From contig JAQTTP010000001.1 in NCBI GenBank assembly GCA_028710695.1, positions 90,001 to 122,000 on the forward strand: a stretch of 32,000 nucleotides of DNA. Direction: 5' to 3'. The notes beneath the pieces were generated by a model. The model worked only from the letters and a program-made list of their open reading frames with translations, made no database searches and was not told where the DNA came from. The stretch is from Candidatus Iainarchaeum sp. (lineage in GTDB: Archaea; Iainarchaeota; Iainarchaeia; Iainarchaeales; 0-14-0-20-30-16). Positions within the stretch are counted from its first letter, which is position 1. Each line of letters starts with the position of its first letter. This document shows, piece after piece, positions 1 to 20,696 of this stretch. The translations under genes were made by a program, and so were the position numbers.

Positions 1-14
1 TAACAAAAAATGAA

Positions 15-413
15 ATGCAATATTTGTATTTAAATAATGTGATAACAAAACAGATGGCAGATTATTTTATTTCTACTCCCGGTTGTGATTTTGATTTTGT
101 GGGATTCAAAGATTATCTAAACTCTAATGCTGCGTCTTTCTGCGAAAACTTTAGTAGCGAATTCTTTAAGTGCGATATTAAGGTAGTAACCGTATTTCAA
201 AAGTTTGGGTTAACAAATGTAACTCTTTCTATAAATAATTCTTTTGATAAAGGGGCAATCCACTTTACATATTCAAAAGAAATAACATTTTCAAAAATAT
301 TTGCCCCAACACAACTTACAATACCTATGCCAGATGGTACAGAACAAAAGACTTGTAATTATACAATAACTGATTTTGAATCCCAGTTAGTAGAAGCATC
401 AGGAACCAAATAA
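15..413 (+). CDS. hypothetical protein, possibly the 3' part of a longer ORF running off the left edge
   Basis: 132-aa ORF from the track. The frame stays open back to nt 3, so the true start may lie outside the window. No motif I recognise; 4 Cys. The 3' end overlaps the convergent rfcL stop by 15 nt. Confidence 0.4.
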   Translation: MQYLYLNNVITKQMADYFISTPGCDFDFVGFKDYLNSNAASFCENFSSEFFKCDIKVVTVFQKFGLTNVTLSINNSFDKGAIHFTYSKEITFSKIFAPTQLTIPMPDGTEQKTCNYTITDFESQLVEASGTK

Positions 414-2262: not shown

Positions 2263-2442
2263 ATGATCAAATTCCTCAAAGATGTAAAAGGACAAGCATC
2301 AATAGAGATTCTTATTGGGGTAGTAATAGTAATTGTTATTGCAACGCTAGTTGGGTTATTTTTGAAAAAAAGCCTGACAAAACCGCAAGAACAGGGTGCG
2401 GATTTAATAGACAAAGTTTCTGAAGATATTGGGGGTAAGTAA
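2263..2442 (+). CDS. class III signal peptide pilin-like protein (59 aa), not in the supplied ORF track
   Basis: My own translation: MIKFLKDVKG|QASIEILIGVVIVIVIATLVGLFLKKSLTKPQEQGADLIDKVSEDIGGK*. It has a basic n-region ending in KG, Gln at +1, Glu at +5 and a ~20-aa hydrophobic helix. AGGTG lies 6 nt upstream of the ATG. The stop (2440-2442) sits 1 nt before the next pilin ATG. Confidence 0.72.
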   Translation: MIKFLKDVKGQASIEILIGVVIVIVIATLVGLFLKKSLTKPQEQGADLIDKVSEDIGGK

Positions 2443-2443
2443 T

Positions 2444-2641
2444 ATGTTCAAATTTTTAAAGGATAAGAAAGGTCAAGGTGCTTTAGAGTACATTTTAATC
2501 ATAGGTGCAGCAGTTCTAATTGCAGCAATAGTAATTGCAATTCTTGTAAGTGCCGGCCGATCAGGAAAAGACGATGCAAATAGTGCATTAAGCGAACAAC
2601 AAAAAGATTTTAACGAATTAAAAAATATTGCAAATGAGTGA
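2444..2641 (+). CDS. class III signal peptide pilin-like protein (65 aa)
   Basis: The track ORF starts at 2429; the ATG at 2444 gives MFKFLKDKKG|QGALEYILIIGAAVLIAAIVIAILV. GGGGGT lies 7 nt upstream. KGQ..LEY followed by a hydrophobic helix is the archaeal type IV pilin / class III signal consensus. Confidence 0.85.
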   Translation: MFKFLKDKKGQGALEYILIIGAAVLIAAIVIAILVSAGRSGKDDANSALSEQQKDFNELKNIANE

Positions 2642-2646
2642 TATCT

Positions 2647-2841
2647 ATGAGTTTTCTTAAAGATACAAAAGGACAAGGTGCTCTTGAGTACCTTTTAATT
2701 ATTGGTGCGGCAATTCTTTTGGCAGCAATAGTAATTGGGGTTTTAATAAAAACATCCGGCAACGCAAAAGATGACATAAACGACACCCAGCAAGTATATG
2801 ATGACCAAATAAATAAGGCGAAGACAGATTTTAATTTGTAA
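2647..2841 (+). CDS. class III signal peptide pilin-like protein (64 aa)
   Basis: The track start at 2638 is GTG. The ATG at 2647 gives MSFLKDTKG|QGALEYLLIIGAAILLAAIVIGVLI, with GAGTGA 6 nt upstream. Close paralogue of the 2444-2641 product. Confidence 0.85.
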   Translation: MSFLKDTKGQGALEYLLIIGAAILLAAIVIGVLIKTSGNAKDDINDTQQVYDDQINKAKTDFNL

Positions 2842-2851
2842 AGGCGAAGAC

Positions 2852-3034
2852 ATGAAATTTATAAGTGATAAGAAGGGACAGATCTCCTTTGAGTACCTTC
2901 TTACTATTGTTTTTGCTGTTCTTCTTGTAATTGCAGTAACATTATTTGTTCTTCAGCTGAGGAAAATAGGCCAAGTTGCCCAGACAAAGATAGAGAATTA
3001 TAAGATTGAGTTCTTTAAGAAAACCTTCGAATAG
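2852..3034 (+). CDS. class III signal peptide pilin-like protein (60 aa)
   Basis: MKFISDKKG|QISFEYLLTIVFAVLLVIAVTLFVL. Same KG|Q...E(+5) geometry as the neighbours, with a divergent C-terminal half. Confidence 0.82.
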   Translation: MKFISDKKGQISFEYLLTIVFAVLLVIAVTLFVLQLRKIGQVAQTKIENYKIEFFKKTFE

Positions 3035-3064
3035 TTTTTTATTCTCTCTTTTTCTATTTCTATT

Positions 3065-4141
3065 ATGTTTTTGGATCTTGTATTTTCCTATTTGCCATAC
3101 ATTTTAGTATTTATTGCCTTGGCAATTGGATCTTATACTGATTTAAAGACAAGAGACCTACATAATTGGCTTACCTTTGGGCTGATTATACTTGGAATCT
3201 TATTTTGGATTGCTAAAAGTATCTATGTTGGACAGTTTTTGTATTGGCCTTTGCTTATTGGCTTGATTACCTTTTTTGTATGCTACTTGCTTTGGTATTT
3301 TGCAGTATTTGCTGGCGGAGATGCAAAACTTATTGCAGGCGTTGCATTTTGTATCCCTTATCAGGATTTTTCAATCTTTTTTAACGGCGGAATAAACCCA
3401 TATTTTATTCCCTTATTTTTTGTTCTTGGTGTCTTTATAGTATTCCCTTTGGGCTTTTTCTTGGCTCTAAAGAGAATAATTGTAAATAAGCATTACAAAA
3501 TAATTCTGCGTGACCTAGTCAAGAAGCTCCCGGGATACTTAGAAGTTGCAGTTACTCTTGTTGGTTTGTATTATATATTTTCTTTATTGCACATCCCTAC
3601 AATTTTTGCCCTGTTGTCTTTCTTATTATTCAAAATAAATTGGAAGATACGTTTGCCAATAGCAATAATTGTTTTTGCAATATCGATTTATTTGAATCCT
3701 TTACGCCTGGTAGATGTTTTGATTTATGTCCTGATTTCAGTAATCTTCTTTTCTTTTATAAAGTTGTTTGGATTTGTAAGGTCTAAAGAGTTTGCAGATT
3801 TGAAGAAAGTAAGTAAGCTAAAGGAAGGAGACATACTTTATAGTTCAATTTACATAAAGGATAATGCCCTTGTAAAAAAACCAACAATAAAAGATATGTT
3901 TAAAAATATCAAAAATAAAGATATATTGCAAAAAACATTTGAATCTATGAAGAGCAAGAATTATGATACAGTAATTCAAACAAGGCCTGCTGGGCTTTAT
4001 AACGAAGAAATAGTAGTGTTGAAAAAATTACAAAAAGACAAGGTAATTCCTGCAGAGATTTATGTGAAACAGAGCGTTCCTTTAACACCTGCTTTGTTTT
4101 TAAGTTATATTGTGTTATTATTTATCGGTGGATTATTATGA
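3065..4141 (+). CDS. A24-family prepilin/preflagellin peptidase (EppA/PibD/FlaK-like)
   Basis: 358-aa polytopic membrane protein. The first catalytic Asp context is SYTDLKTRDL; the second is in FAGGDAKLIAGVA (GxGD-type aspartyl protease motif). A ~110-aa soluble segment plus a terminal TM follow the core. The stop overlaps the next ATG (ATGA at 4138-4141). Confidence 0.9.
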   Translation: MFLDLVFSYLPYILVFIALAIGSYTDLKTRDLHNWLTFGLIILGILFWIAKSIYVGQFLYWPLLIGLITFFVCYLLWYFAVFAGGDAKLIAGVAFCIPYQDFSIFFNGGINPYFIPLFFVLGVFIVFPLGFFLALKRIIVNKHYKIILRDLVKKLPGYLEVAVTLVGLYYIFSLLHIPTIFALLSFLLFKINWKIRLPIAIIVFAISIYLNPLRLVDVLIYVLISVIFFSFIKLFGFVRSKEFADLKKVSKLKEGDILYSSIYIKDNALVKKPTIKDMFKNIKNKDILQKTFESMKSKNYDTVIQTRPAGLYNEEIVVLKKLQKDKVIPAEIYVKQSVPLTPALFLSYIVLLFIGGLL

Positions 4142-4602
4142 TGTTAGGAAAAGGCCGGGGACAAATGACAATAGAATTCATTCTAATTGTGGTAGTAATT
4201 TTGATTTTACTACAAACCATAATTGTACCATTCACGGATTATGCAAAAGATTCTGTAACAGATATTTCATCCTTATCTTATGTTGACCAATCTGCAGATA
4301 ATCTGAAGCAGTCAATTGAGTTTGTAACTATGAATGAATCAATGGCAAAAACCCAAGTTACTGTGTTTATCCCGGAAGATGCAAACTTAGTTCTTTCTGC
4401 GGATGCAATATCTTATTTTATTGAATTAAAAGATGCGCCAAAGAATTCTAATTGCAATAATGACGGCCTATGTACAAAAACAATATACTTACAAAAAGGA
4501 ATTTCTAATAGCGATGATCTAATATTACCTGGAAAAAAAGAATATTCATTAAATATCTTCAAAGAGCCCGGTGGAAAAACATATGTTGAACTTTTGCAAT
4601 AA
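4138..4602 (+). CDS. larger pilin-like protein with class III signal peptide (154 aa)
   Basis: MMLGKGRG|QMTIEFILIVVVILILLQTIIVPF: RG|Q, Glu at +5 and a hydrophobic helix, followed by a ~120-aa globular part with 2 Cys. Translationally coupled to the peptidase gene. Confidence 0.75.
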   Translation: MMLGKGRGQMTIEFILIVVVILILLQTIIVPFTDYAKDSVTDISSLSYVDQSADNLKQSIEFVTMNESMAKTQVTVFIPEDANLVLSADAISYFIELKDAPKNSNCNNDGLCTKTIYLQKGISNSDDLILPGKKEYSLNIFKEPGGKTYVELLQ

Positions 4603-4936
4603 GAGCAAGTTGAATAACAAAGGCCAATCCAGTTTTGAAATTCTTTTTGTTACAATTATAGTAATCTTGCTTGCGGGTATATTGTACTATTTCACCTTAG
4701 GAAATACAAAAGAGATAAGCAATATAGGAGTAATAAAAACAGAGGTAGAATCCTTTTTCGTTGAAAACAGTCAACAGATAACTATCTCAAACATAGATCT
4801 AATGGAAAGTGGAAATCTAATTCAAGCAAAAATCAAGTTATCAAAAACATACGAGTTCTCAGAGACACAAATAGAATTATTGAAATCAAAAATAAAAGAG
4901 AAAATAAAGAAAGATGTAGAGTTTATTTTCTACTAA
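4583..4936 (+). CDS. larger pilin-like protein with class III signal peptide (117 aa)
   Basis: The track start at 4571 is GTG. The ATG at 4583 gives MLNFCNKSKLNNKG|QSSFEILFVTIIVILLAGILYYF. Overlaps the preceding gene by 20 nt. Confidence 0.7.
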   Translation: MLNFCNKSKLNNKGQSSFEILFVTIIVILLAGILYYFTLGNTKEISNIGVIKTEVESFFVENSQQITISNIDLMESGNLIQAKIKLSKTYEFSETQIELLKSKIKEKIKKDVEFIFY

Positions 4937-4969: not shown

Positions 4970-5488
4970 ATGAAAAGAAATATTATTATTTATTGCATAA
5001 TTATTGTAATCATATTGGCAATTGCAATTTGGGCAATAGTGGATTATTCAACTTCAACCAAATTGAAAGACCTTGACTTAAACATGACTACTGAAGAACA
5101 GTTTAATTCAAACATTGCTCTGTGTAATAAAATGTCTTCTGAAAAAAATACTTGTCTTGAAACAGTAGTTTTTACTTATTTGGATTATTTGCATAACAAA
5201 GCTATCTGCCCTGAGTCAACTGTTTGTGAGCCTTTGGGGGCAGCAGGTTTAACAGACGCAAAATCCAAATGTATGGAAGAAATGTGCGTTGCTTATGATG
5301 ATGTTGATTGTATAAAAGGAGACGTAAAATTAAGTGAAACTAATGTAATAACAGTTTGTATAAATGGGCAATATGTTAGTACTTGTGATGATAACGACAC
5401 CTACATTGATTCAGACGGTTATGAATTGCGGTGTGATAATGGACATTGGAGTGATGCGCACCCATTACAAAAAGAAAACCCCGCATAA
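4970..5488 (+). CDS. membrane-anchored Cys-rich extracellular protein (172 aa)
   Basis: N-terminal signal anchor MKRNIIIYCIIIVIILAIAIWAIV, then ~10 Cys in the ectodomain (CNK, CLE, CPE, CEP, CMEEMC, DCIK, CING, CDD, CDNG). No named family recognised. Confidence 0.65.
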   Translation: MKRNIIIYCIIIVIILAIAIWAIVDYSTSTKLKDLDLNMTTEEQFNSNIALCNKMSSEKNTCLETVVFTYLDYLHNKAICPESTVCEPLGAAGLTDAKSKCMEEMCVAYDDVDCIKGDVKLSETNVITVCINGQYVSTCDDNDTYIDSDGYELRCDNGHWSDAHPLQKENPA

Positions 5489-5575
5489 AAACAACAAACC
5501 ACCTTTAAATGCATTTGTATACTTATTTAAAGATTAGTATACTTATTTATATAACTTATTTGTGAGTTGGGTTAT

Positions 5576-7963
5576 ATGAATAAAGGCTATTTTGGCATTG
5601 CTCTTATTGTTCTTGTTGTTGTTGGAATTTTTGCTTTCGGATTTTTGAGTTCTTTTACTGCAAAAGATTCTTATTTGTTTATTCCAGTGGTTGACCATAA
5701 CAAACTGAAAGAAGTTGCAAAAAATAACACAATCACAGGCAGATTACCGGCTGATTTAGTTACTTCTAAGAACTGTCAATCTTTAGAAATGCAACTCCTT
5801 TCAAGTCATAAATTTGTTTGTAAGGATTTTGATGAGTCTGTGTTAAAAAAGGGTACAGTTACTGGATATGCAAAAGAAAGTTTTACATACTTGCCATACG
5901 GTTCTTCCCAAAAAGTAGATGTAAATGTTGGCTGTGAACAAAAAACAGATTATTGTAAAAGCCCAGAAATTCTTTATGAAGCATATTGTAAAAAAATATA
6001 TGCCGACTCAAAAAAATCAGGTGATGTATATTTAGAATATTGGCCAGATTACAAAGTAGTTGATTGTAATGACCAAGGCCCAGGATACGTTTGTAAAAGT
6101 GGTGCTTGTGTTGATGTAAGTAACATTTGTGGAAACTCAATAATAGACCAAAATGAAAGTTGTGATGATGGAAATAATAAAAACGGGGATGGCTGCAGTT
6201 CAAAATGTTTATTAGAAGCCGCCCCCGATTTAATTGTAAGTAAAATTTACAAAGAACCATATAGTGAAGACTGTGTAAATTCAGTTCATTTTGAAATATG
6301 TAATGTTGGCAACTTGCCAGTATTAGGAGATTTTAATATCCTTGTTAAAGTTGAAGACAAAAATACAAAAATAACTTATTCTGCAGGACAATATGACGGA
6401 TTTGAAGACGGGTGTGTGCATATAACTGATTCCATAATGTTATCATATGGCTTATTTGGTTTAGGCCTTAATGAAAACCCAACAGTAGAAATAATGGTGG
6501 ATATAAGTAACAACATTGCAGAAACAAATGAACAGAACAATAGTTTATCCCAAGAAACAGAAACCGGAACTAAGTACCTTGCTGATGGAAATATATGTGA
6601 GGAAACCTGTACAGACTCCGATGACTATTTGGGTGAAGATAGTGTTTATGTTAAATCCTTATTATTTGGAATGGATAGTGGTGGTGATTATAAAGATTAT
6701 GATTATTGCGGATCATCTGGTGCTTATTTAGAGGAACTAATTTGTATCCCTTCCGAAAAAGGAAAGAAGGGCACGACAGAAGAATATCCTTGTTTTTTGT
6801 TTAATCAAATATGTGAAGATGGTAAATGTGTAGACGCACCCGGATTTTCTTTTTCTTGTGATGAACAAGGAGACACAGGATTTGACTGGGATAAGAAAGG
6901 GAAAATAATTTACATAGATTCTTCTGGAAAAAATAAAGAAAGCGAAGATTATTGTTATAATGAAAATGTTGAAGAAAAATTAATGTATGGTACAAAGGTG
7001 CATGAATTTTTATGTGCTGGGCCCATAGCACATAACAGTAATAAAAATTGTATTTGTTATGATGGCGCTTGTGTAGGGAGTCAAGAAGATTTATGTGATT
7101 CTGACCTTAAAAAATCTTGTTCTAAAGATGATATTAATTATTATGAGAAAGGCACTGCGAAGCAAACCTTAAAGCTTTATTGTGATCTGCCTGTGTTGGG
7201 GAACACAAAGGTTGAAGAAAATTCAGCTGAATTTGAGGATTATTGTGAACTGAATGAAAATGGATCTTCTTGTGACCCAAGTATTCCAGAATATTTGAAC
7301 CCTAATTGTTATACTTATGGCCCAATCTTAAAAGAATTAAGTTGTAATTCTGAGGGGGAAGTAGATTATTTGAATTATAACTGTGCTTCAGAAGGAAAAA
7401 CTTGTGTGAATGGCGCTTGTATTGAAGTTGGCGCTGATCCAGAAGAATGTGTAGATAACGATGGAATAAATTATTTTTCTCAAAGTTATATCTGGTCAAA
7501 AATTTCAATTGGTTGGGAAAATAATTGGTGGGATACTTGTTTAGATGATAACACCTTATTGGAATATGCTTGTGATGGAAATAAAGCAAAATATGAAAAG
7601 TATGATTGTTCAACTATAAACAAAGTTTGTAACAATGGCAAATGTATAACTCCTGCCGGTCAAAGCGGGAGTGAAGTAGAAGAGCTGGATGGTACAAAAG
7701 ACAATGGAATCTATACTGTCAATGGCAAAGATTATTCTTTATCAGAACAATTTTGTATCCCTTCTGACAAAAAAATAGAATATTGTGATGGGCAGGGAAA
7801 TGTGTTTGCATCTTCAGATTCTTGTGTAAATGATATTGGTGGAAAAGTAGAGAGTTCAAATTATTTGGTGAGTTGGTCTTGTGATGTTGACAAGCCAAAA
7901 ACAAGCCTAACAAATTGTAATTCTAATGGTGGTCATTGTGAAATTAATGAATGTGTCAAGTAA
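5576..7963 (+). CDS. giant secreted Cys-rich protein A (795 aa): Myxococcus-type Cys repeat + CARDB-like domain + repeated six-Cys modules
   Basis: The track start at 5567 is TTG; the first ATG at 5576 gives MNKG+YFGIALIVLVVVGIFAFGFL. Contains CGNSIIDQNESCDDGNNKNGDGCSSKC (6128-6208). The CARDB-like stretch runs APDLIVSKIY...VHFEICNVGNLPVLGDFNILVKVED...ISNNIAETNEQNNS. I count 51 Cys, with recurrent C-x-[DNS]-G-x-C-[VI] module ends. Confidence 0.85.
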   Translation: MNKGYFGIALIVLVVVGIFAFGFLSSFTAKDSYLFIPVVDHNKLKEVAKNNTITGRLPADLVTSKNCQSLEMQLLSSHKFVCKDFDESVLKKGTVTGYAKESFTYLPYGSSQKVDVNVGCEQKTDYCKSPEILYEAYCKKIYADSKKSGDVYLEYWPDYKVVDCNDQGPGYVCKSGACVDVSNICGNSIIDQNESCDDGNNKNGDGCSSKCLLEAAPDLIVSKIYKEPYSEDCVNSVHFEICNVGNLPVLGDFNILVKVEDKNTKITYSAGQYDGFEDGCVHITDSIMLSYGLFGLGLNENPTVEIMVDISNNIAETNEQNNSLSQETETGTKYLADGNICEETCTDSDDYLGEDSVYVKSLLFGMDSGGDYKDYDYCGSSGAYLEELICIPSEKGKKGTTEEYPCFLFNQICEDGKCVDAPGFSFSCDEQGDTGFDWDKKGKIIYIDSSGKNKESEDYCYNENVEEKLMYGTKVHEFLCAGPIAHNSNKNCICYDGACVGSQEDLCDSDLKKSCSKDDINYYEKGTAKQTLKLYCDLPVLGNTKVEENSAEFEDYCELNENGSSCDPSIPEYLNPNCYTYGPILKELSCNSEGEVDYLNYNCASEGKTCVNGACIEVGADPEECVDNDGINYFSQSYIWSKISIGWENNWWDTCLDDNTLLEYACDGNKAKYEKYDCSTINKVCNNGKCITPAGQSGSEVEELDGTKDNGIYTVNGKDYSLSEQFCIPSDKKIEYCDGQGNVFASSDSCVNDIGGKVESSNYLVSWSCDVDKPKTSLTNCNSNGGHCEINECVK

Positions 7964-10900
7964 GGGATTTATTTCCGTATTTTTTGTGTTGCTTGTGTTA
8001 GTATCTTTGGCTGTGCTCCCCAATATTGGGGATAATAATTCAGCATTACTATACTTGCCTTTTATAGACCACAATAAAATGAAAACAATTTCTACTAATA
8101 CAACAAAAAATATCATTAATCCATACTCTTCAGATCCAACATATATAACTCAAAAATGTTCTGAGTTGCAAAAAGAAGCCACAAAAAACACAAGTATTGT
8201 TCAACAGATTTCTATTGGAAAAAATGTTTGTGAAGAACAAGATAAAGCAAGTAGTATGTATGAAAAAGGAATTACTGTAAGTTATAATCCAAAAGAAATA
8301 ACAATGTATAAAGAAGATGGAAGTAAATATAATTTATCTAAAGGCTGCCATAGTTTGGAAGATTCTTGTACTTATAACGGATCTACAACTTTAATTGAGT
8401 CTTATTGTGACACAACAAAACAAGTTGTTACATCAAAAGAAATAAAATGCCCAACTGGAATGATTTGTAATAAAGGGGCTTGTATTAAGCCAAGTTGTGG
8501 CGATGGTCTTCTTTTGAGCGGAGAAGACTGTGATGATGGAAATACAATTAATGGAGATGGTTGTGACTCTGGCTGTAAAATTGAAAAGAAACCAATAGAT
8601 TTATATGTTGGAAAAATTGAAAAAGAAGCAATAAGCAAAAAATGTATGAATTATTTTTCTTTTGAAATCTGTAATAGCGGTCCGGGGGCAGTAGCCCAAG
8701 GCTTTAATGTATTACTAAAATCAGAAGATTCAAATGTTGTAATTCCGATAGATATTCAAAAATATGGTGCAATTAATTCCAATGCCTGCATTTTAGTTGA
8801 TGAACCGGGATATGCAAATATAATAGGTTTAAAATTAAACTTGGGAGACTCTGCAAAAATTGAAATATCTGTTGATTATGATAATTTAATTATTGAGGAA
8901 AATGAAAATAATAATTCAAAATCGGAAACTGTATTTTCTGGGTCTGCATATATGTATGATAACACAACAGAATGTGAAACTTCTTGTTATGACTCTGATG
9001 GCGGTTGGCAATACCCCGCATCTATAAATAAAGGAACTTTATTTTTTAATGATCTTTACGAACTTTCAACTACAGAAGACTCCTGTTCTTTATTTGGAAT
9101 AGAACTCACTGAAAAGTTTTGTGGAACTTATAGTTGGAATGGTAAAATAGAAAGCACTTCAAAAGAGATTAGTGTGCCGTGTTATCTGCAAAATAAAAAA
9201 TGTGAAGATGGCAAATGTGTGGATTTAGAATCTGGAGAAAGCAAAAATAATTTATCTTGTATTGAAACAGAAGATTTTGGTATATTTGTTGGTGGAGATA
9301 TAATATTTGGCGATTTTAAGGGGGAAATACATAATCTTGACAGTTCCTGTTTGGAAAGCATTTTGACTTATTATCAATGTGATGATTTACAGCCAATTTT
9401 ATCTGAAAGTGATTGTTGGTATGATAATGCTTTGTGTATTGAAGGAAAATGTGTTCCAGGGGAAATAAATTTTATTTGTGATAAAAAAGATACAAATTAT
9501 TTTAAAAAAGACTTTGCATTTGCTCAAAAAGAAATCAAAGTAGGGGAATTTGTTTCCCCTGTAGACAACAAAGAAATATATGATTCTTGTGTAGAAGATT
9601 ATGGCTCCATTTTACAGGAGGCCTTTTGTGGTAAGGATAATGTGGAGTTTATAGATTATAATTGTGCAGAAATGGGCGCTACTTGTGTTGATGGCGAATG
9701 TAAATTACCGGATTTTAACTTGAAATTTTGTGATGATTATGATCAGGGATTAAATGTTTTTGAAGGCGGCAGCTTATTTTACTGGAACGAATTTGATGTA
9801 CATGGCACTTATAATGATACCTGTGTTGATAAAAATCAAATCCTTGAGCTTTATTGTGACGGTGTAGATTACAAAACGACAATCATAAATTGTAAAGAAT
9901 TTGGTGAAAAATATAGTTGTGTTGATGATTTTTCTAATGCTTTTTGTGGATATCCTGATGAATCAAAAGAAAAATGTGAATCTTTTGATAATGGTGTGGC
10001 ATATACAAACACATACGGAATAACAGAAAGCTTTGGTAATGATTGTATTAATTTTGGCACAAATGACAGTCCCTCATATCAGGAAGTGACATATTTTTGT
10101 AATGGGAATAAAAAAGTAAAAAACCATGTTGACTGTGCCGATGGTCAATCCTGTATGAACTCAGAACACAAATGTAAACCCCTTGTAGAACCAGAATGTT
10201 ATTCGTCAGATGGAAACAATCTTTTTATAAAAGGCAATATTTTTTATGTTGATAAATTTGGAAATAAGGAGTCTAATAATATGGACTGTTGTAAGCCGGG
10301 AACAACCCAATTACAAGAAAGCTATTGTGATGGCACAAATATAGTTAAACAAGAATATGATTGTAAAATATTACTTAATAACCCCGGTGCTGTCTGTTAT
10401 TACGGCAGTGATGAATGTAAGGTTTATGATCTTGCCAAAGATTACTGTAAGGAAACAGAATATGGAATTGAATATGGCGATGGATATAAAATTAGTGAAA
10501 AACATAATATTTGTAGTGACGATATCTGGTCTTTGAAAAACATTGATGATTACTTTTTAGGCGATTATTATTATGCATATAATTGTGATGAAAATTTTGG
10601 ATATGACTTCACGCAAAGCAAAGCATTTGGTAATAACAATATTTGCGTATATAACTTCGTCGATCAAAACGAAATGAAAGTTCTAAATAAAGTAAAAATG
10701 GTTTCGATTGGGGATTATGAAATTAATGATTATATGTTAATATACCCTTTTGAAGGGCTTAATGACTATATCGAAGAATCCGGTATATTTAATTTAAAAA
10801 GCAAACCTTATGGCGAATATAAAACAACAATAAAAAATTATTTAAAAGAGAATATTTCTGGGCTGATTTCAAAGGTCGTCACTGAAAATAACTTTATAGG

Positions 10901-11063
10901 ACTAAAAACTTGTTTGGCTACAGAAAATCCTGCTGTTGTAGATTGCCCCTCCTGTTACACGGATTTTGGTGTAACAAAACAAGAATATTATGAAGATATT
11001 TACAATTTGTTAAATGACGTAAAACCAGAAGGAATAGATGTTTGTGTGCTCCCGAATGAGTAA
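7947..11063 (+). CDS. giant secreted Cys-rich protein B (1038 aa), tandem paralogue of A
   Basis: The track start is 7926; the ATG at 7947 gives MNVSSKG+FISVFFVLLVLVSLAVL. Contains CGDGLLLSGEDCDDGNTINGDGCDSGC (8496-8576). The CARDB-like stretch runs PIDLYVGKIE...FSFEICNSGPGAVAQGFNVLLKSED...VDYDNLIIEENENNNS. Many further Cys modules follow. Overlaps gene A by 17 nt (38 nt from 7926) in a different frame. Confidence 0.85.
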   Translation: MNVSSKGFISVFFVLLVLVSLAVLPNIGDNNSALLYLPFIDHNKMKTISTNTTKNIINPYSSDPTYITQKCSELQKEATKNTSIVQQISIGKNVCEEQDKASSMYEKGITVSYNPKEITMYKEDGSKYNLSKGCHSLEDSCTYNGSTTLIESYCDTTKQVVTSKEIKCPTGMICNKGACIKPSCGDGLLLSGEDCDDGNTINGDGCDSGCKIEKKPIDLYVGKIEKEAISKKCMNYFSFEICNSGPGAVAQGFNVLLKSEDSNVVIPIDIQKYGAINSNACILVDEPGYANIIGLKLNLGDSAKIEISVDYDNLIIEENENNNSKSETVFSGSAYMYDNTTECETSCYDSDGGWQYPASINKGTLFFNDLYELSTTEDSCSLFGIELTEKFCGTYSWNGKIESTSKEISVPCYLQNKKCEDGKCVDLESGESKNNLSCIETEDFGIFVGGDIIFGDFKGEIHNLDSSCLESILTYYQCDDLQPILSESDCWYDNALCIEGKCVPGEINFICDKKDTNYFKKDFAFAQKEIKVGEFVSPVDNKEIYDSCVEDYGSILQEAFCGKDNVEFIDYNCAEMGATCVDGECKLPDFNLKFCDDYDQGLNVFEGGSLFYWNEFDVHGTYNDTCVDKNQILELYCDGVDYKTTIINCKEFGEKYSCVDDFSNAFCGYPDESKEKCESFDNGVAYTNTYGITESFGNDCINFGTNDSPSYQEVTYFCNGNKKVKNHVDCADGQSCMNSEHKCKPLVEPECYSSDGNNLFIKGNIFYVDKFGNKESNNMDCCKPGTTQLQESYCDGTNIVKQEYDCKILLNNPGAVCYYGSDECKVYDLAKDYCKETEYGIEYGDGYKISEKHNICSDDIWSLKNIDDYFLGDYYYAYNCDENFGYDFTQSKAFGNNNICVYNFVDQNEMKVLNKVKMVSIGDYEINDYMLIYPFEGLNDYIEESGIFNLKSKPYGEYKTTIKNYLKENISGLISKVVTENNFIGLKTCLATENPAVVDCPSCYTDFGVTKQEYYEDIYNLLNDVKPEGIDVCVLPNE

Positions 11064-16823: not shown

Positions 16824-16951
16824 GACATGACCCCCGTTTCAATAGAATAGTTATATCTAATATAAACTATAACATTTATATATTAATTCAAGTTATTTAT
16901 AATGTTTGTTATGTTTACAGTCTGGTCTTATTTATATCTCGGGTGAATGGC

Positions 16952-18565
16952 ATGGTGTTTGTAGATAATCTTTTCCAAAAGGATTCTAAAGAAAATAAAG
17001 AAGAAAAAGAAGCGGCGCAAGAAAAAGAAGAAACAAAAGAACGAACTGCGCGACCGACTAGTACTAGCCCATCCACTACAGACGCCCTTATACCTACTGA
17101 ACTAAGTTTTGAAGATTTAGAAAACGCAAACAAAAAAATGATTGCTTCTTATGGTGAAGTGAAAATATACAAAGTTGAAGGTCACCCAATATTACACTAT
17201 GAAGTGCCAACTCCTAAAGCATCAAGTGGAGAACAGCTAGTAATCAACACAATAAAAGAAGCGGCAACAAGAATCATTAACGTTGCGCCTTACAAAATAA
17301 GAGATGAACAACAGAGAAGAAATGTATACTTCCAAAAAGTAATGGAAATCATCTCCTCGTCCCCAGAATTAAAAATCCCTGAAGGAAAGCAAAAGTTTTA
17401 TGCCAATGCAGTTGTAACTGAGATGGTTGGATTTGGAATTATTGACTCTTTGTTAAAAGATGACGGATTAGAAGAGATAATGATAATTGGTCCAAAGAAG
17501 CCAGTTTATGTTTTCCACAGAGAATACGAAATAATGACAACAAACATCGTATTTTATGAAGATAAAGATATAATTGATTTGATCTCCAGAATTGCGAGAT
17601 ACACAGGAAGAAGAATAGATTATTCACAACCATTATTAGATGCAAGATTAAGTGATGGATCAAGAATAAATGCAACTATTCCACCAGTTTCTGTTGCGGG
17701 TTCAACATTGACGATAAGAAAGTTTAGAAAAGAGCCTTATACTATAATAGATTTGATAAACAACGGCACAATAGATCTACAAACTGCCGCATTCTTGTGG
17801 CTTTGTGTTGATGGTATGGATGTAAAGCCAGCAAACATTTTAATAGCGGGAGGAACAGGATCAGGAAAAACAACAACCCTGAATGTTCTCTCAAGTTTTA
17901 TTCCATCAAGAGAAAGAATAATTACTATTGAAGACACCGCAGAATTAAACTTGCCTTTAACTCATTGGATAAGATTAGAAGCCCGACCACCCGGAATTGA
18001 AGGTACAGGAGAAATAACTTTAGATATTTTAACAAAAAATGCATTGAGAATGCGACCTGACAGAGTAATTGTTGGTGAAGTAAGGCATAGCGAAGCTTTG
18101 GCTTTATTTACTGCAATGAACACGGGTCACGATGGTTGTATGGGTACAGTACACGCGAACTCTGCCCAAGAAACAATTGTAAGAGTTACTTCTCCACCAA
18201 TGGATGTTCCACAAGTTATGCTTTCTGGTTTAGATATGATTCTTGTTCAACAAAGAATACACGATAAAAGAAAAGGAACAATAAGAAGAATCACCGAGAT
18301 TGCAGAAGTAAGTGGAGTGTTAGAAAGAAATACTCAAACACAAAAAATTTATGAATGGGATCCGAAAGATGACAAATTAGTTGATACTTCAGTTCCATCA
18401 AGATATTTGAAAAAAGTTGCAACATTTTCAGGAAAAACAATGGCACAAGTTACAAAGGAAATTTCAACAAGAGCACAATTCTTGAAAAGATTATTGGATA
18501 AAAACATAAAATCTCAGATAGAATTATCGCAAGAGATACAAAAATATTATGATTTAGAAGAATAA
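16952..18565 (+). CDS. type IV pilus/archaellum-family assembly ATPase (FlaI/TadA/VirB11-like, T2SSE family)
   Basis: The track start at 16943 is GTG; ATG at 16952. Walker A GGTGSGKTT, Asp box IITIEDTAEL, Walker B RPDRVIVGEVR, His box TGHDGCMGTVHANS. The N-terminal ~55 aa are low-complexity (KENKEEKEAAQEKEETKERTARPTSTSPSTT). Confidence 0.92.
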   Translation: MVFVDNLFQKDSKENKEEKEAAQEKEETKERTARPTSTSPSTTDALIPTELSFEDLENANKKMIASYGEVKIYKVEGHPILHYEVPTPKASSGEQLVINTIKEAATRIINVAPYKIRDEQQRRNVYFQKVMEIISSSPELKIPEGKQKFYANAVVTEMVGFGIIDSLLKDDGLEEIMIIGPKKPVYVFHREYEIMTTNIVFYEDKDIIDLISRIARYTGRRIDYSQPLLDARLSDGSRINATIPPVSVAGSTLTIRKFRKEPYTIIDLINNGTIDLQTAAFLWLCVDGMDVKPANILIAGGTGSGKTTTLNVLSSFIPSRERIITIEDTAELNLPLTHWIRLEARPPGIEGTGEITLDILTKNALRMRPDRVIVGEVRHSEALALFTAMNTGHDGCMGTVHANSAQETIVRVTSPPMDVPQVMLSGLDMILVQQRIHDKRKGTIRRITEIAEVSGVLERNTQTQKIYEWDPKDDKLVDTSVPSRYLKKVATFSGKTMAQVTKEISTRAQFLKRLLDKNIKSQIELSQEIQKYYDLEE

Positions 18566-18659
18566 TGGCTCAAAAATGATTTGTGATATTTATGAGCAAG
18601 TTAATGATTTGTTGCAAAGCGGCAAAAATCAAAACAGGCTCACAAAAATGTGATTTATT

Positions 18660-19766
18660 ATGAGTTTTGATCTTAACGACAAGATGCAGGAGAAGGTAGA
18701 CCTAAAACAAGTGGAGTCTATTGTCGAAAATATCAAACGTAAGTATGAAGAAAAAGGCTTGTCAAATGATTTAGAATCATTGCGTCTGCAAGAATTAAGG
18801 TCAATAATTTCAGAAGGAAAAAGATCACAAATTGAAGTTCAAAAACCAGAAGAATTATCTGCAGATTACAACAAAGGTGTAAAGCTGATTGGGAAAATTT
18901 ATAACTCATTTTCATCATTCTTTTCATTATTTTCAAAAAGAATATTATCTATTTTGCCAGGTAGAAATGAATTAAGCATGGACTTAGACAGTGCAAACAT
19001 AAATTACAGCACAGCACAATATCTTGCAATAACTTCTGTTATATCATTAATATTAACAATAATAATTACTGCGGTAGCTGCAGCTTTGTTTGCAGTAATA
19101 GAAATTCCACAATACTATTTAGTATTAGTCTTTTTTGTGGCCATGTTTTTAACTGCGGGAATAGTTCTGAAATATCCTTCCATTGTTGCAGCCGATCGTG
19201 CAAAAAAAATAGATGCAGAACTTCCATTTGCATTGCGACACATGGCAACTGAGCTTCGTGCAGGAATAGGTTTGTATAGAGTTTTACAAACGATCGCTAT
19301 TGGAGAATATGGCTATTTATCAGAAGAAATGGCGCGAGTTATAAATGAAGTTGAACAAGGTGCAGATACAAAAGATGCATTAAAAAATTTAGCATATAGA
19401 ACAAGATCTTTTTCATTAAGAAATACTTTAAACCATATTTTGCGTGCATTAAAATCTGGTGGAAACCTTTCTGAAGTTTTGAATAATACAGCAAATGATG
19501 TTTCATTTGAAATCAGATTGAACTTGGAATCATTTTCAGGAAAAATGAATTTCATTGGAGTAATTTATATTTTTATTGGAATTGTAATCCCTGTAATGTT
19601 GGCAATTTTAGGAACAATTAGAAATATTCCTTTGGGCGGCGGCGTATCTTTATTTGCCTCTTTGCCATTGACGCCAACAATGATAATTTTATTGTATGTT
19701 GTAATTCTTCCAATTTGTTTGATTGGATTGGTAATGTATATTAGAAAAATTAGGCCTACATATTAA
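18660..19766 (+). CDS. pilus platform membrane protein, single T2SSF domain (TadB/FlaJ-like)
   Basis: 368 aa. Cytoplasmic N-terminal region, TMs, then the T2SSF-type segment AELPFALRHMATELRAGIGLYRVLQTIA...ALKNLA, then C-terminal TMs. Confidence 0.8.
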   Translation: MSFDLNDKMQEKVDLKQVESIVENIKRKYEEKGLSNDLESLRLQELRSIISEGKRSQIEVQKPEELSADYNKGVKLIGKIYNSFSSFFSLFSKRILSILPGRNELSMDLDSANINYSTAQYLAITSVISLILTIIITAVAAALFAVIEIPQYYLVLVFFVAMFLTAGIVLKYPSIVAADRAKKIDAELPFALRHMATELRAGIGLYRVLQTIAIGEYGYLSEEMARVINEVEQGADTKDALKNLAYRTRSFSLRNTLNHILRALKSGGNLSEVLNNTANDVSFEIRLNLESFSGKMNFIGVIYIFIGIVIPVMLAILGTIRNIPLGGGVSLFASLPLTPTMIILLYVVILPICLIGLVMYIRKIRPTY

Positions 19767-19790
19767 GGTTAGTCCACAAATGGTGTTGCT

Positions 19791-20696
19791 ATGAGTAATT
19801 TGATGTTGAAGTACAAGAAAATATTGGAGAGAAACAAAATAAAACTTCATCCTCTTGTGTGGATTGCCATTGCAGTATTAATTGGTATTGTTGGAGCAGT
19901 TTTAATTGCCTTGCTTGTTGGAAATTATGTTTTTGCTGCTGTGACTTTGATTGCCATTGCAGATATAATAATTGGTCTGCCTATTTATGTTGAAAACAAA
20001 AGAACCGCCCAGATTGAAAAGTTTTTTCCCTCTGCATTAAGAGAAATGAGCGATGTTTTGAAGAGCGGCGGAACTTACGAATATGCTTTAAGAGAAGTGT
20101 CAATGATCGATTACGGCCCATTGACTAAAGAGCTACAAAAAGTATTAAGGCGATTAGAAGATGGTGCAAACTTTGAAGATGCCTTGGCGTCTATAAACGA
20201 AAATGTGGATTCTTCATTGGTAAGAAAAGTTATTACAATTATTTTGGACTCTGTTAGAGCTGGAGCGGGTTTAGCAGATGTTTTAGATGAGATTGCAGAA
20301 GATGCAAGAAACCTGTATAAATTACAGCAAGAAAGAAGAGCAAAGACTACAATGCAAGTTTTATTTATTGCTGCGGCCGGATCGGTAATTGCGCCAGCAA
20401 TATTTGGGTTAGTAAATACTTTAAGTTCGTTTTTAGTGGAGGTCTCTACAAGCACAGGGATTGTGGAATCAGTTAAAGAGATCGCTGCTGCTGTTGCCGC
20501 CGGAGACATAATTTATAATGTATTATTATTCTACTTATTTTTTGAATCCTTAATTTCAAGTGTAATAATTGCTTATATGAGGGATAGAACCGCATCAAAA
20601 GCCTTGCTTTACTTCCCAATATTCGTATTTGTTGGATTCATAATATTCTTCCTAGCAAAGTATGCCACAAAAGTAATGCTTGCAGGTATGATTTAA
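19791..20696 (+). CDS. pilus platform membrane protein, single T2SSF domain (TadC/FlaJ-like)
   Basis: 301 aa. FFPSALREMSDVLKSGGTYEYALREVS...ALASIN flanked by TM segments. Starts 24 nt after the preceding platform gene. Confidence 0.78.
   Translation: MSNLMLKYKKILERNKIKLHPLVWIAIAVLIGIVGAVLIALLVGNYVFAAVTLIAIADIIIGLPIYVENKRTAQIEKFFPSALREMSDVLKSGGTYEYALREVSMIDYGPLTKELQKVLRRLEDGANFEDALASINENVDSSLVRKVITIILDSVRAGAGLADVLDEIAEDARNLYKLQQERRAKTTMQVLFIAAAGSVIAPAIFGLVNTLSSFLVEVSTSTGIVESVKEIAAAVAAGDIIYNVLLFYLFFESLISSVIIAYMRDRTASKALLYFPIFVFVGFIIFFLAKYATKVMLAGMI

Follow-up and report, generated by a model that had tools for sequence, protein, structure and literature searches.

Candidate attachment proteins in an Iainarchaeal genome: a tandem pair of cysteine-rich paralogues carrying an uncatalogued six-cysteine module

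Two large cysteine-rich genes stand side by side, downstream of type IV pilus genes, in the 32,000 nucleotides of Candidatus Iainarchaeum sp. (Iainarchaeota, DPANN) DNA analysed here (assembly GCA_028710695.1, contig JAQTTP010000001.1, positions 90,001 to 122,000 of the forward strand; hereafter the window). Are the encoded proteins, which we call A and B, part of the pilus, or are they surface proteins with an anchor of their own? To our knowledge, few surface proteins of DPANN archaea have an assigned function. These archaea have tiny genomes, and those brought into culture live attached to their hosts (10.1101/2023.10.27.564410; PMC6142677). The window is AT-rich (G+C content ~32%) and has an archaeal gene content that includes both RFC subunits, Cdc48, a DNA ligase and a proteasome subunit. 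An earlier reading of the letters alone, the first-pass annotation, had suggested that A and B may be prepilin peptidase substrates, for example carried by the pilus, with the fallback that they are simply signal-anchored. The best explanation of the analysis presented below is that A-B is a bicistronic pair of N-terminally membrane-anchored extracellular proteins. What is new here is a DPANN surface-protein family, an uncatalogued six-cysteine domain and a recurrent tandem duplication, in which the distal end of B evolves fast; the domain and the family are useful, and nothing in them overturns expectations.

Domain layout of A and B and the six-cysteine module

Gene A (5576-7963) encodes 795 residues, 51 of them cysteine (6.4%), and gene B (7947-11063) encodes 1038 residues with 61 cysteines (5.9%); the 3′ end of A and the start of B overlap by 17 nucleotides. 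Positions given without a locus name are those of the window, and all genes and features at them are on the + strand. The two proteins are bona fide paralogues, with 31% identity over 673 columns and an E-value of 1e-56 by BLASTP. The gene sizes, the 51 cysteines of A and the octapeptide CEDGKCVD encoded at 6812-6835 in A and 9201-9224 in B, along with the other sequence-level statements of the first-pass annotation, were all reproduced. It had also recognised the two as colinear paralogues, which is correct, but the ~430 residues assigned to the colinear part are too few, the actual span being ~640 residues, and the word giant overstates proteins of 795 and 1038 residues.

In A, a putative N-terminal anchor is followed by a linker, a first six-cysteine module, a single Myxococcus cysteine-rich repeat, an Ig-like CARDB domain and five further six-cysteine modules. 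With a hidden Markov model (HMM) of the module, seeded on the protein P0016 described below, 6 copies are recognised in A and 7 in B; a single copy precedes the DUF4215/CARDB pair in either protein, and the remaining copies follow it. The first and second cysteine modules of the earlier reading do exist, but they are copies of this one module type. Module 1 of A (5888-6115, E 1.2e-12) has the C-terminal sequence CKSGACVD, and modules 2-6 (6605-6835, 6857-7075, 7295-7426, 7448-7648 and 7769-7960) fill the stretch 6605-7960. Module 1 of B (8229-8489) ends in CNKGACIK, and modules 2-7 lie at 8985-10406, module 6 (9972-10160) being degenerate. The remainder of B (10407-11060) is a module-free C-terminal tail of ~220 residues without a match in Pfam or PDB, and comparison with the orthologue marks it as the fastest-diverging part of the protein.

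The two domains already named at first pass were identified correctly. The Myxococcus-type repeat (6125-6220 in A, 8490-8588 in B) exceeds the cutoff of 20.8 bits of the TIGR02232 model (myxo_disulf_rpt) in both proteins, with 40.4 bits in A and 42.7 in B; against Pfam DUF4215 (gathering threshold 27) B passes with 35.1 bits and A falls just under with 24.4. The CARDB domain (6221-6550 in A, 8598-8924 in B) is likewise over the Pfam gathering threshold for PF07705 of 22.7 bits in B (26.4) and marginally under it in A (21.7). The NCBI record for a protein identical to A reads ‘DUF4215 domain-containing protein [Candidatus ainarchaeum sp.]’, and the annotation of both A and B rests on the Myxococcus-type repeat. 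How far does that name describe them? Like the Myxococcus cysteine-rich repeat proteins (TIGR02232 / DUF4215), A and B each hold one bona fide repeat of the form CGNx8(E)(S/D)CDDGNxxNGDGCxSxC. However, typical DUF4215 proteins carry 10-47 tandem repeats, whereas A and B have a single copy that is dispensable in their family, and their bulk is a different module. They also resemble the CARDB surface proteins of archaea and bacteria in that A, B and each of their relatives have one CARDB domain; the difference is that in this family the domain is always fused C-terminally to a six-cysteine module, and CARDB itself has no established biochemical function.

The module that makes up this bulk spans ~70 residues with the consensus C-x-D-x-D...G...D-x-C...L-x-E-x-x-C...C...C-x-x-G-x-C. 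Across the family, 176 copies were found in 28 proteins, and all six cysteines are aligned in 98/176. An AlphaFold 2 model of module 5 of A (7445-7651), built with a 27-sequence module alignment, has a mean predicted local distance difference test score (pLDDT) of 92.6 and a predicted template modelling score of 0.77. The modelled fold is all-beta and consists of two hairpins, a helix of a single turn and, at the end, another hairpin. The six near-invariant cysteines together with this confident all-beta model suggest up to three disulfides per module; patterns of cysteine co-loss among the family's module copies did not reveal their connectivity. Metal binding by the cysteines is ranked low, given that they are grouped by six in compact beta modules and that the protein is exported.

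Profile searches with the module gave no match in Pfam, NCBIfam or PDB sequences, an indexed protein search with the module alignment gave none either, and Foldseek found nothing similar to the modelled fold in PDB or BFVD (best E 4.1 and 1.5, respectively). The module is an uncatalogued six-cysteine domain of ~70 residues, present in none of the domain and structure libraries searched, and it is a candidate addition to domain databases. It is also found outside the CARDB family, since P0016 (608 residues, encoded at L011 5347-7173 after grpE-dnaK-dnaJ) has a lipobox-like LAGC and nothing but six copies of the module.

Relatives in DPANN archaea and the proposed surface stalk

How widespread are proteins of this kind? 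Apart from near-orthologues, word-indexed searches returned no more than three Woesearchaeal proteins, all homologues of B. An exhaustive profile search returned 21,678 matches, mainly DUF4215 giants, among which about 19 are true architectural relatives with CARDB and modules. All relatives with a source organism name come from Woesearchaeota or Nanoarchaeia. The architecture shared by A, B and these about 19 relatives is a hydrophobic anchor at the N-terminus, a unit of CARDB plus module, and tandem modules towards the C-terminus. It places A and B in a sparse family in which every named member is a DPANN archaeon. A search of one literature library found no paper that pairs DUF4215 or CARDB with these DPANN groups. 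The CARDB domain with the module that follows it, a unit of ~210 residues, is the invariant core of the family (120-316 bits against the family HMM, 288 bits for A), and the single CARDB is its most conserved part. By Pfam the relatives' CARDB domains score 19.9-39.4 bits, with P0201 under gathering. The DUF4215 repeat is optional, being missing from P0113, P0118, P0125, P0132, P0185 and P0209, and the string of modules after CARDB varies from 5 to 10 copies. A narrower family alignment, used as a locus-search pattern, retrieved 4 loci from the 185,579 species representatives of GTDB and 3 metagenome loci, mostly already known.

Tandem pairs occur in three lineages: the Iainarchaeal A and B, a Woesearchaeal lineage (L004, L005, L006, L014 and L015; 837+1267 residues) and L010 (1187+~790 residues). 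The remaining members are singletons. The Woesearchaeal paralogues share 61-64% identity with each other versus 32-37% with A or B, which indicates that the pairs arose independently or were homogenised by gene conversion. A predicted membrane protein of 63-64 residues (...YERxxxEE...LxFxMWGxLxxLYF...), not pilin-like, is conserved beside Woesearchaeal family members, where it is encoded upstream of the tandem pair in L004 (6915-7109) and L005 (2992-3186) and downstream of the singleton P0096 in L016 (14144-14335).

The two Iainarchaeal paralogues do not diverge in the same way. Compared with its orthologues, A is evenly about 70% identical along its length. B is 70-88% identical to its orthologue over most of its proximal stretch (residues ~100-450) versus 14-52% in the distal half, and identity is lowest at residues ~850-1000 (14-30%). 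Such a gradient fits an exposed, variable tip. Taken with the all-beta six-cysteine modules and CARDB, it makes an extracellular, disulfide-rich, adhesin-like ectodomain, as the earlier reading had it, the best reading of these proteins.

We hypothesize that the N-terminal segment would serve as a signal anchor of the Sec type, its N-terminus kept inside the cell, or else as a signal peptide, and that the ectodomain would be exported with each module locked by up to three disulfides. The string of modules would then form a stiff, beads-on-a-string stalk that holds the fast-evolving distal end, which in B comprises the distal modules and the 220-residue tail, off the cell, where it could bind a surface or a partner cell. 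That A and B are Sec-type anchored, disulfide-stapled, adhesin-like modular surface stalks is a reading to which we give slightly better than an even chance. The adhesin role is a probable one, judged by CARDB, the domain layout and the gradient of divergence, and it makes A and B concrete candidate attachment factors.

The K-G junction and the pilus question

The feature that first tied A and B to the pilus lies at their N-termini. A begins MNK-G/YFGIALIVLVVVGIFAFGFL and B begins MNVSSK-G/FISVFFVLLVLVSLAVL, so that in both a short basic leader ending in [KR]-[GA] runs into ~20 hydrophobic residues. In A the hydrophobic segment (residues 4-29, encoded at 5585-5662) comes right after M-N-K with a K-G/Y junction and a mean Kyte-Doolittle hydropathy of 3.1, and the sequence MNKGYFGIAL is the same in 3/3 A orthologues. 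In B, hydropathy and orthologue comparison place it at residues 7-25 (7965-8021), after MNVSSK and with a K-G/F junction. A juxtamembrane motif follows at 5669-5710 in A (SYLFIPVVDHNKLK) and at 8043-8084 in B (ALLYLPFIDHNKMK); in the alignment of the Iainarchaeal A and B sequences, P37, D40, N42, K43 and K45 (numbering of A) are invariant in 6/6. The junction reported at first pass is thus present in both proteins, Gln+1 and Glu+5 are absent as stated, and the six class III signals upstream are there.

Several observations weigh against an ordinary anchor. K-G is itself invariant in 6/6 Iainarchaeal A and B sequences, and its geometry, with 19-26 hydrophobic residues abutting the Gly, matches a class III site exactly. 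In the window and in L001, a syntenic locus with about 70% identity to the window's A, the pair sits on the same strand after pilins, peptidase and minor-pilin-like genes. Type IV pilus genes occur within 10 kb in 3/9 lineages: adjacent in the window and L001, beside P0125, with an intact Epd-like operon ending 1.6 kb away, and near P0096, with T2SSE 2-6 kb away and surrounding small open reading frames (ORFs) that are not pilins. This is a mild enrichment over chance if the base rate is, as we guess, 5-10%, and it falls short of proof. Finally, L001 holds a second cluster (371-2082) of four pilin-like genes encoding 118, 183, 93 and 175 residues, none with a Pfam match, whose junctions read YKG/QISLD, KKG/IMFSLD, KRG/FIFTFD and NRG/FFSVIL, and 3/4 of them lack Gln+1. 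The first ORF of the window (3-413), cut by the window edge, is the C-terminal part of a counterpart of the NRG/FFSVIL gene. These [KR]G/I/F genes in L001 and at 3-413 indicate that substrates with Phe or Ile at +1 probably exist in the organism, which may use two classes of prepilin signals.

Could A and B then be modular type IV pilins, in which the peptidase cuts after K-G, the hydrophobic N-terminus inserts, probably at the tip, in the core of the pilus, and the Cys-rich ectodomain is grafted on as adhesive cargo? We consider this unlikely, with the points just listed in its favour. Bacteria are known to have modular pilins that bear many additional domains (PMC8179133), and large FlaFind-positive pilins have been reported in Haloferax volcanii (PMC4371748). 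With Streptococcus sanguinis PilB and PilC (PMC8179133), A and B share a short basic leader ending in Gly, ~20 hydrophobic residues and large modules and, in this window, genes that adjoin pilin and peptidase genes. They differ in having no Gln+1 or Glu+5, no pilin module was recognised in them, and neither the motif nor the pilus linkage is conserved.

Each of these differences can be followed in detail. At +1, A has Tyr and B has Phe, and neither has an acidic residue at +5, although all six local upstream pilins carry [KR]G/Q...E+5 signals and the EppA peptidase of M. maripaludis needs Gln at +1 (PMC4371748). The local A24 peptidase has the EppA model as its best match at 55.7 bits versus a cutoff of 450, and is by that score not an equivalog. 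The leader geometry of A and B fits an ordinary signal anchor equally well. Moreover, the MNVSSK leader of B is encoded wholly within the 17-nucleotide overlap with the conserved C-terminus of A, its Lys codon spanning the A stop codon; conservation of the B leader is therefore not independent evidence.

Beyond the Iainarchaeal sequences the processing motif is not conserved among homologues. In about 22 lineages the N-terminus consists of a basic n-region and 17-26 hydrophobic residues, and of about 20 other lineages only 2 have Gly at the junction, P0161 (KG/V) and P0172 (KG/G, with a lipobox). The Woesearchaeal homologues have KRRD/IIF and RRNK/LVL instead, and lipoboxes occur in three family members. 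Most relatives (P0095-P0185; L004, L005 and L010) carry a motif φ-x-G-x-A-x-[KR] (φ, hydrophobic), often followed by (I/M)LPAY, 5-25 residues past the hydrophobic segment; at that position the Iainarchaeal proteins have [SA]-x-L-x-x-P-x-x-D-x-N-K-x-K. By its fit to the -3/-1 rule the motif may be where signal peptidase I cuts; many members would then leave the membrane instead of staying anchored in it.

Is there a pilin module behind the hydrophobic segment? None was detected in the N-terminal region of A by AlphaFold 2 with an alignment of only 8 sequences, by BLASTP and orthologue z-scores or by hhalign. The full-length model of A (pLDDT 54), used for secondary structure only, has a helix at residues 5-23 and then a pLDDT of 20-30 for residues 25-130. 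One candidate homology was tried and rejected: the N-terminal 95 residues of A match the pilin-like protein encoded at L001:1555-2079 by BLASTP (E 3e-6), yet hhalign gives the pair a probability of 7.7%, and once the hydrophobic segment is left out the z-score of 4.1 for the window's A is not reproduced by its orthologues (0.3 and -0.6).

Linkage to the pilus is not kept either. In the orthologous loci L002, L003 and L007 (66-69% identity) the A-B pair follows a gatE-like gene, not pilus genes. For the Woesearchaeal tandem pairs, the flanks examined (up to 10 kb) contain no pilus genes, and over the same reach 6/9 lineages have none; co-occurrence with pilus genes, suggested as a check at first pass, is seen in the other three only.

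With the Gly absent from most distant relatives, no Gln+1 or Glu+5, no pilin module detected and no conserved linkage, the peptidase-substrate idea does not stand as the leading reading; the fallback of a simple signal anchor is the one that the family comparison of N-termini favours. In our reading the K-G junction is not a pilin signal but a peculiarity of this clade within an otherwise ordinary anchor. It is improbable, in our estimate, that the Iainarchaeal lineage converted an ancestral Sec-type anchor into a class III signal, with A and B as archaeal modular pilins of 800-1000 residues that load a disulfide-stapled adhesive stalk on a type IV pilus. Processing would in that event be performed, alongside the upstream [KR]G/F/I pilin-like proteins, by a second peptidase of PibD/FlaK type or by an EppA-like enzyme of relaxed specificity. 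Were K-G a real prepilin-peptidase site, archaeal modular pilins of this size would exist.

A different tie to the pilus would need no class III signal and would fit the plain anchors of the relatives: A and B might be Sec-exported, non-pilin adhesins of the PilY1/PilC kind, docked on a minor-pilin tip complex of the 154-residue and 121-residue pilin-like proteins. PilY1 and PilC are large non-pilin proteins encoded after minor pilin genes and proposed to sit at the pilus tip, a precedent discussed in PMC8179133, and the placement of the pair immediately after minor-pilin-like genes in the window and L001, with pilus genes near 3/9 lineages, speaks for this idea. However, A and B are archaeal, have no sequence or fold similarity to PilY1/PilC and are built from other domains, DUF4215 and CARDB being their only Pfam matches. 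The linkage is also absent in 6/9 lineages and A has a promoter-like element of its own, and we hold a docked tip adhesin to be quite improbable.

That A and B are instead structural cell-envelope proteins, S-layer-like or wall-spanning, whose disulfide-rich modules form a protective lattice or spacer, is very doubtful. In favour of it, archaeal envelope proteins often contain CARDB or other Ig-like domains, the family is retained in several DPANN phyla among housekeeping genes, and A is evenly conserved along its length. Against it, Pfam and NCBIfam gave no match to an S-layer model for A or B (a well-characterised S-layer family was the outcome that the first-pass annotation had named as fatal to its own idea), a C-terminal anchor or PGF-CTERM is missing (the last residues of A belong to a module, those of B read ...DVCVLPNE), N-glycosylation sequons are not enriched (4 in A versus about 8 expected), a family as sparse as the GTDB search indicates is unlike a core envelope component, and the distal half of B diverges fast.

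Pilus genes and promoter region around the A-B pair

Upstream of the pair, at 2263-4936, Pfam and signal motifs identify genes for four mini-pilins, for an A24 prepilin peptidase (3065-4141) that has an Arc_PepC domain, and for two larger pilin-like proteins. A and B had been described as directly downstream of the pilus genes. They are downstream, but not directly, as the ORF list has an intervening gene for a signal-anchored protein of 172 residues with 11 cysteines (4970-5488). This ORF has no database match and is not a copy of the six-cysteine module, and it is missing from the otherwise syntenic L001.

Domain searches place the type IV pilus ATPase (T2SSE) and two T2SSF platform genes at 16943-20696. 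The Epd-like pilus locus of the window is split, with ~12 kb that contains A-B, cdc48, the RFC small subunit and unknown genes between the pilins and peptidase on one side and T2SSE/T2SSF on the other; on the P0125 contig the same Epd-like gene set is contiguous.

Where would transcription of the pair begin? A TATA-like box, TTTATATAA, lies ~25 nucleotides upstream of the A start (5546-5554), and an AT-rich element of this kind is found ~20-40 nucleotides 5′ of A in the window, L001 and L002 despite differing upstream genes. Its presence in three contexts makes A-B look like a transcription unit of its own, with the box as its likely promoter. The region immediately 5′ of A also contains a 13-nucleotide direct repeat, GTATACTTATTTA, at 5517-5529 and 5537-5549, the second copy of which overlaps the TATA-like box.

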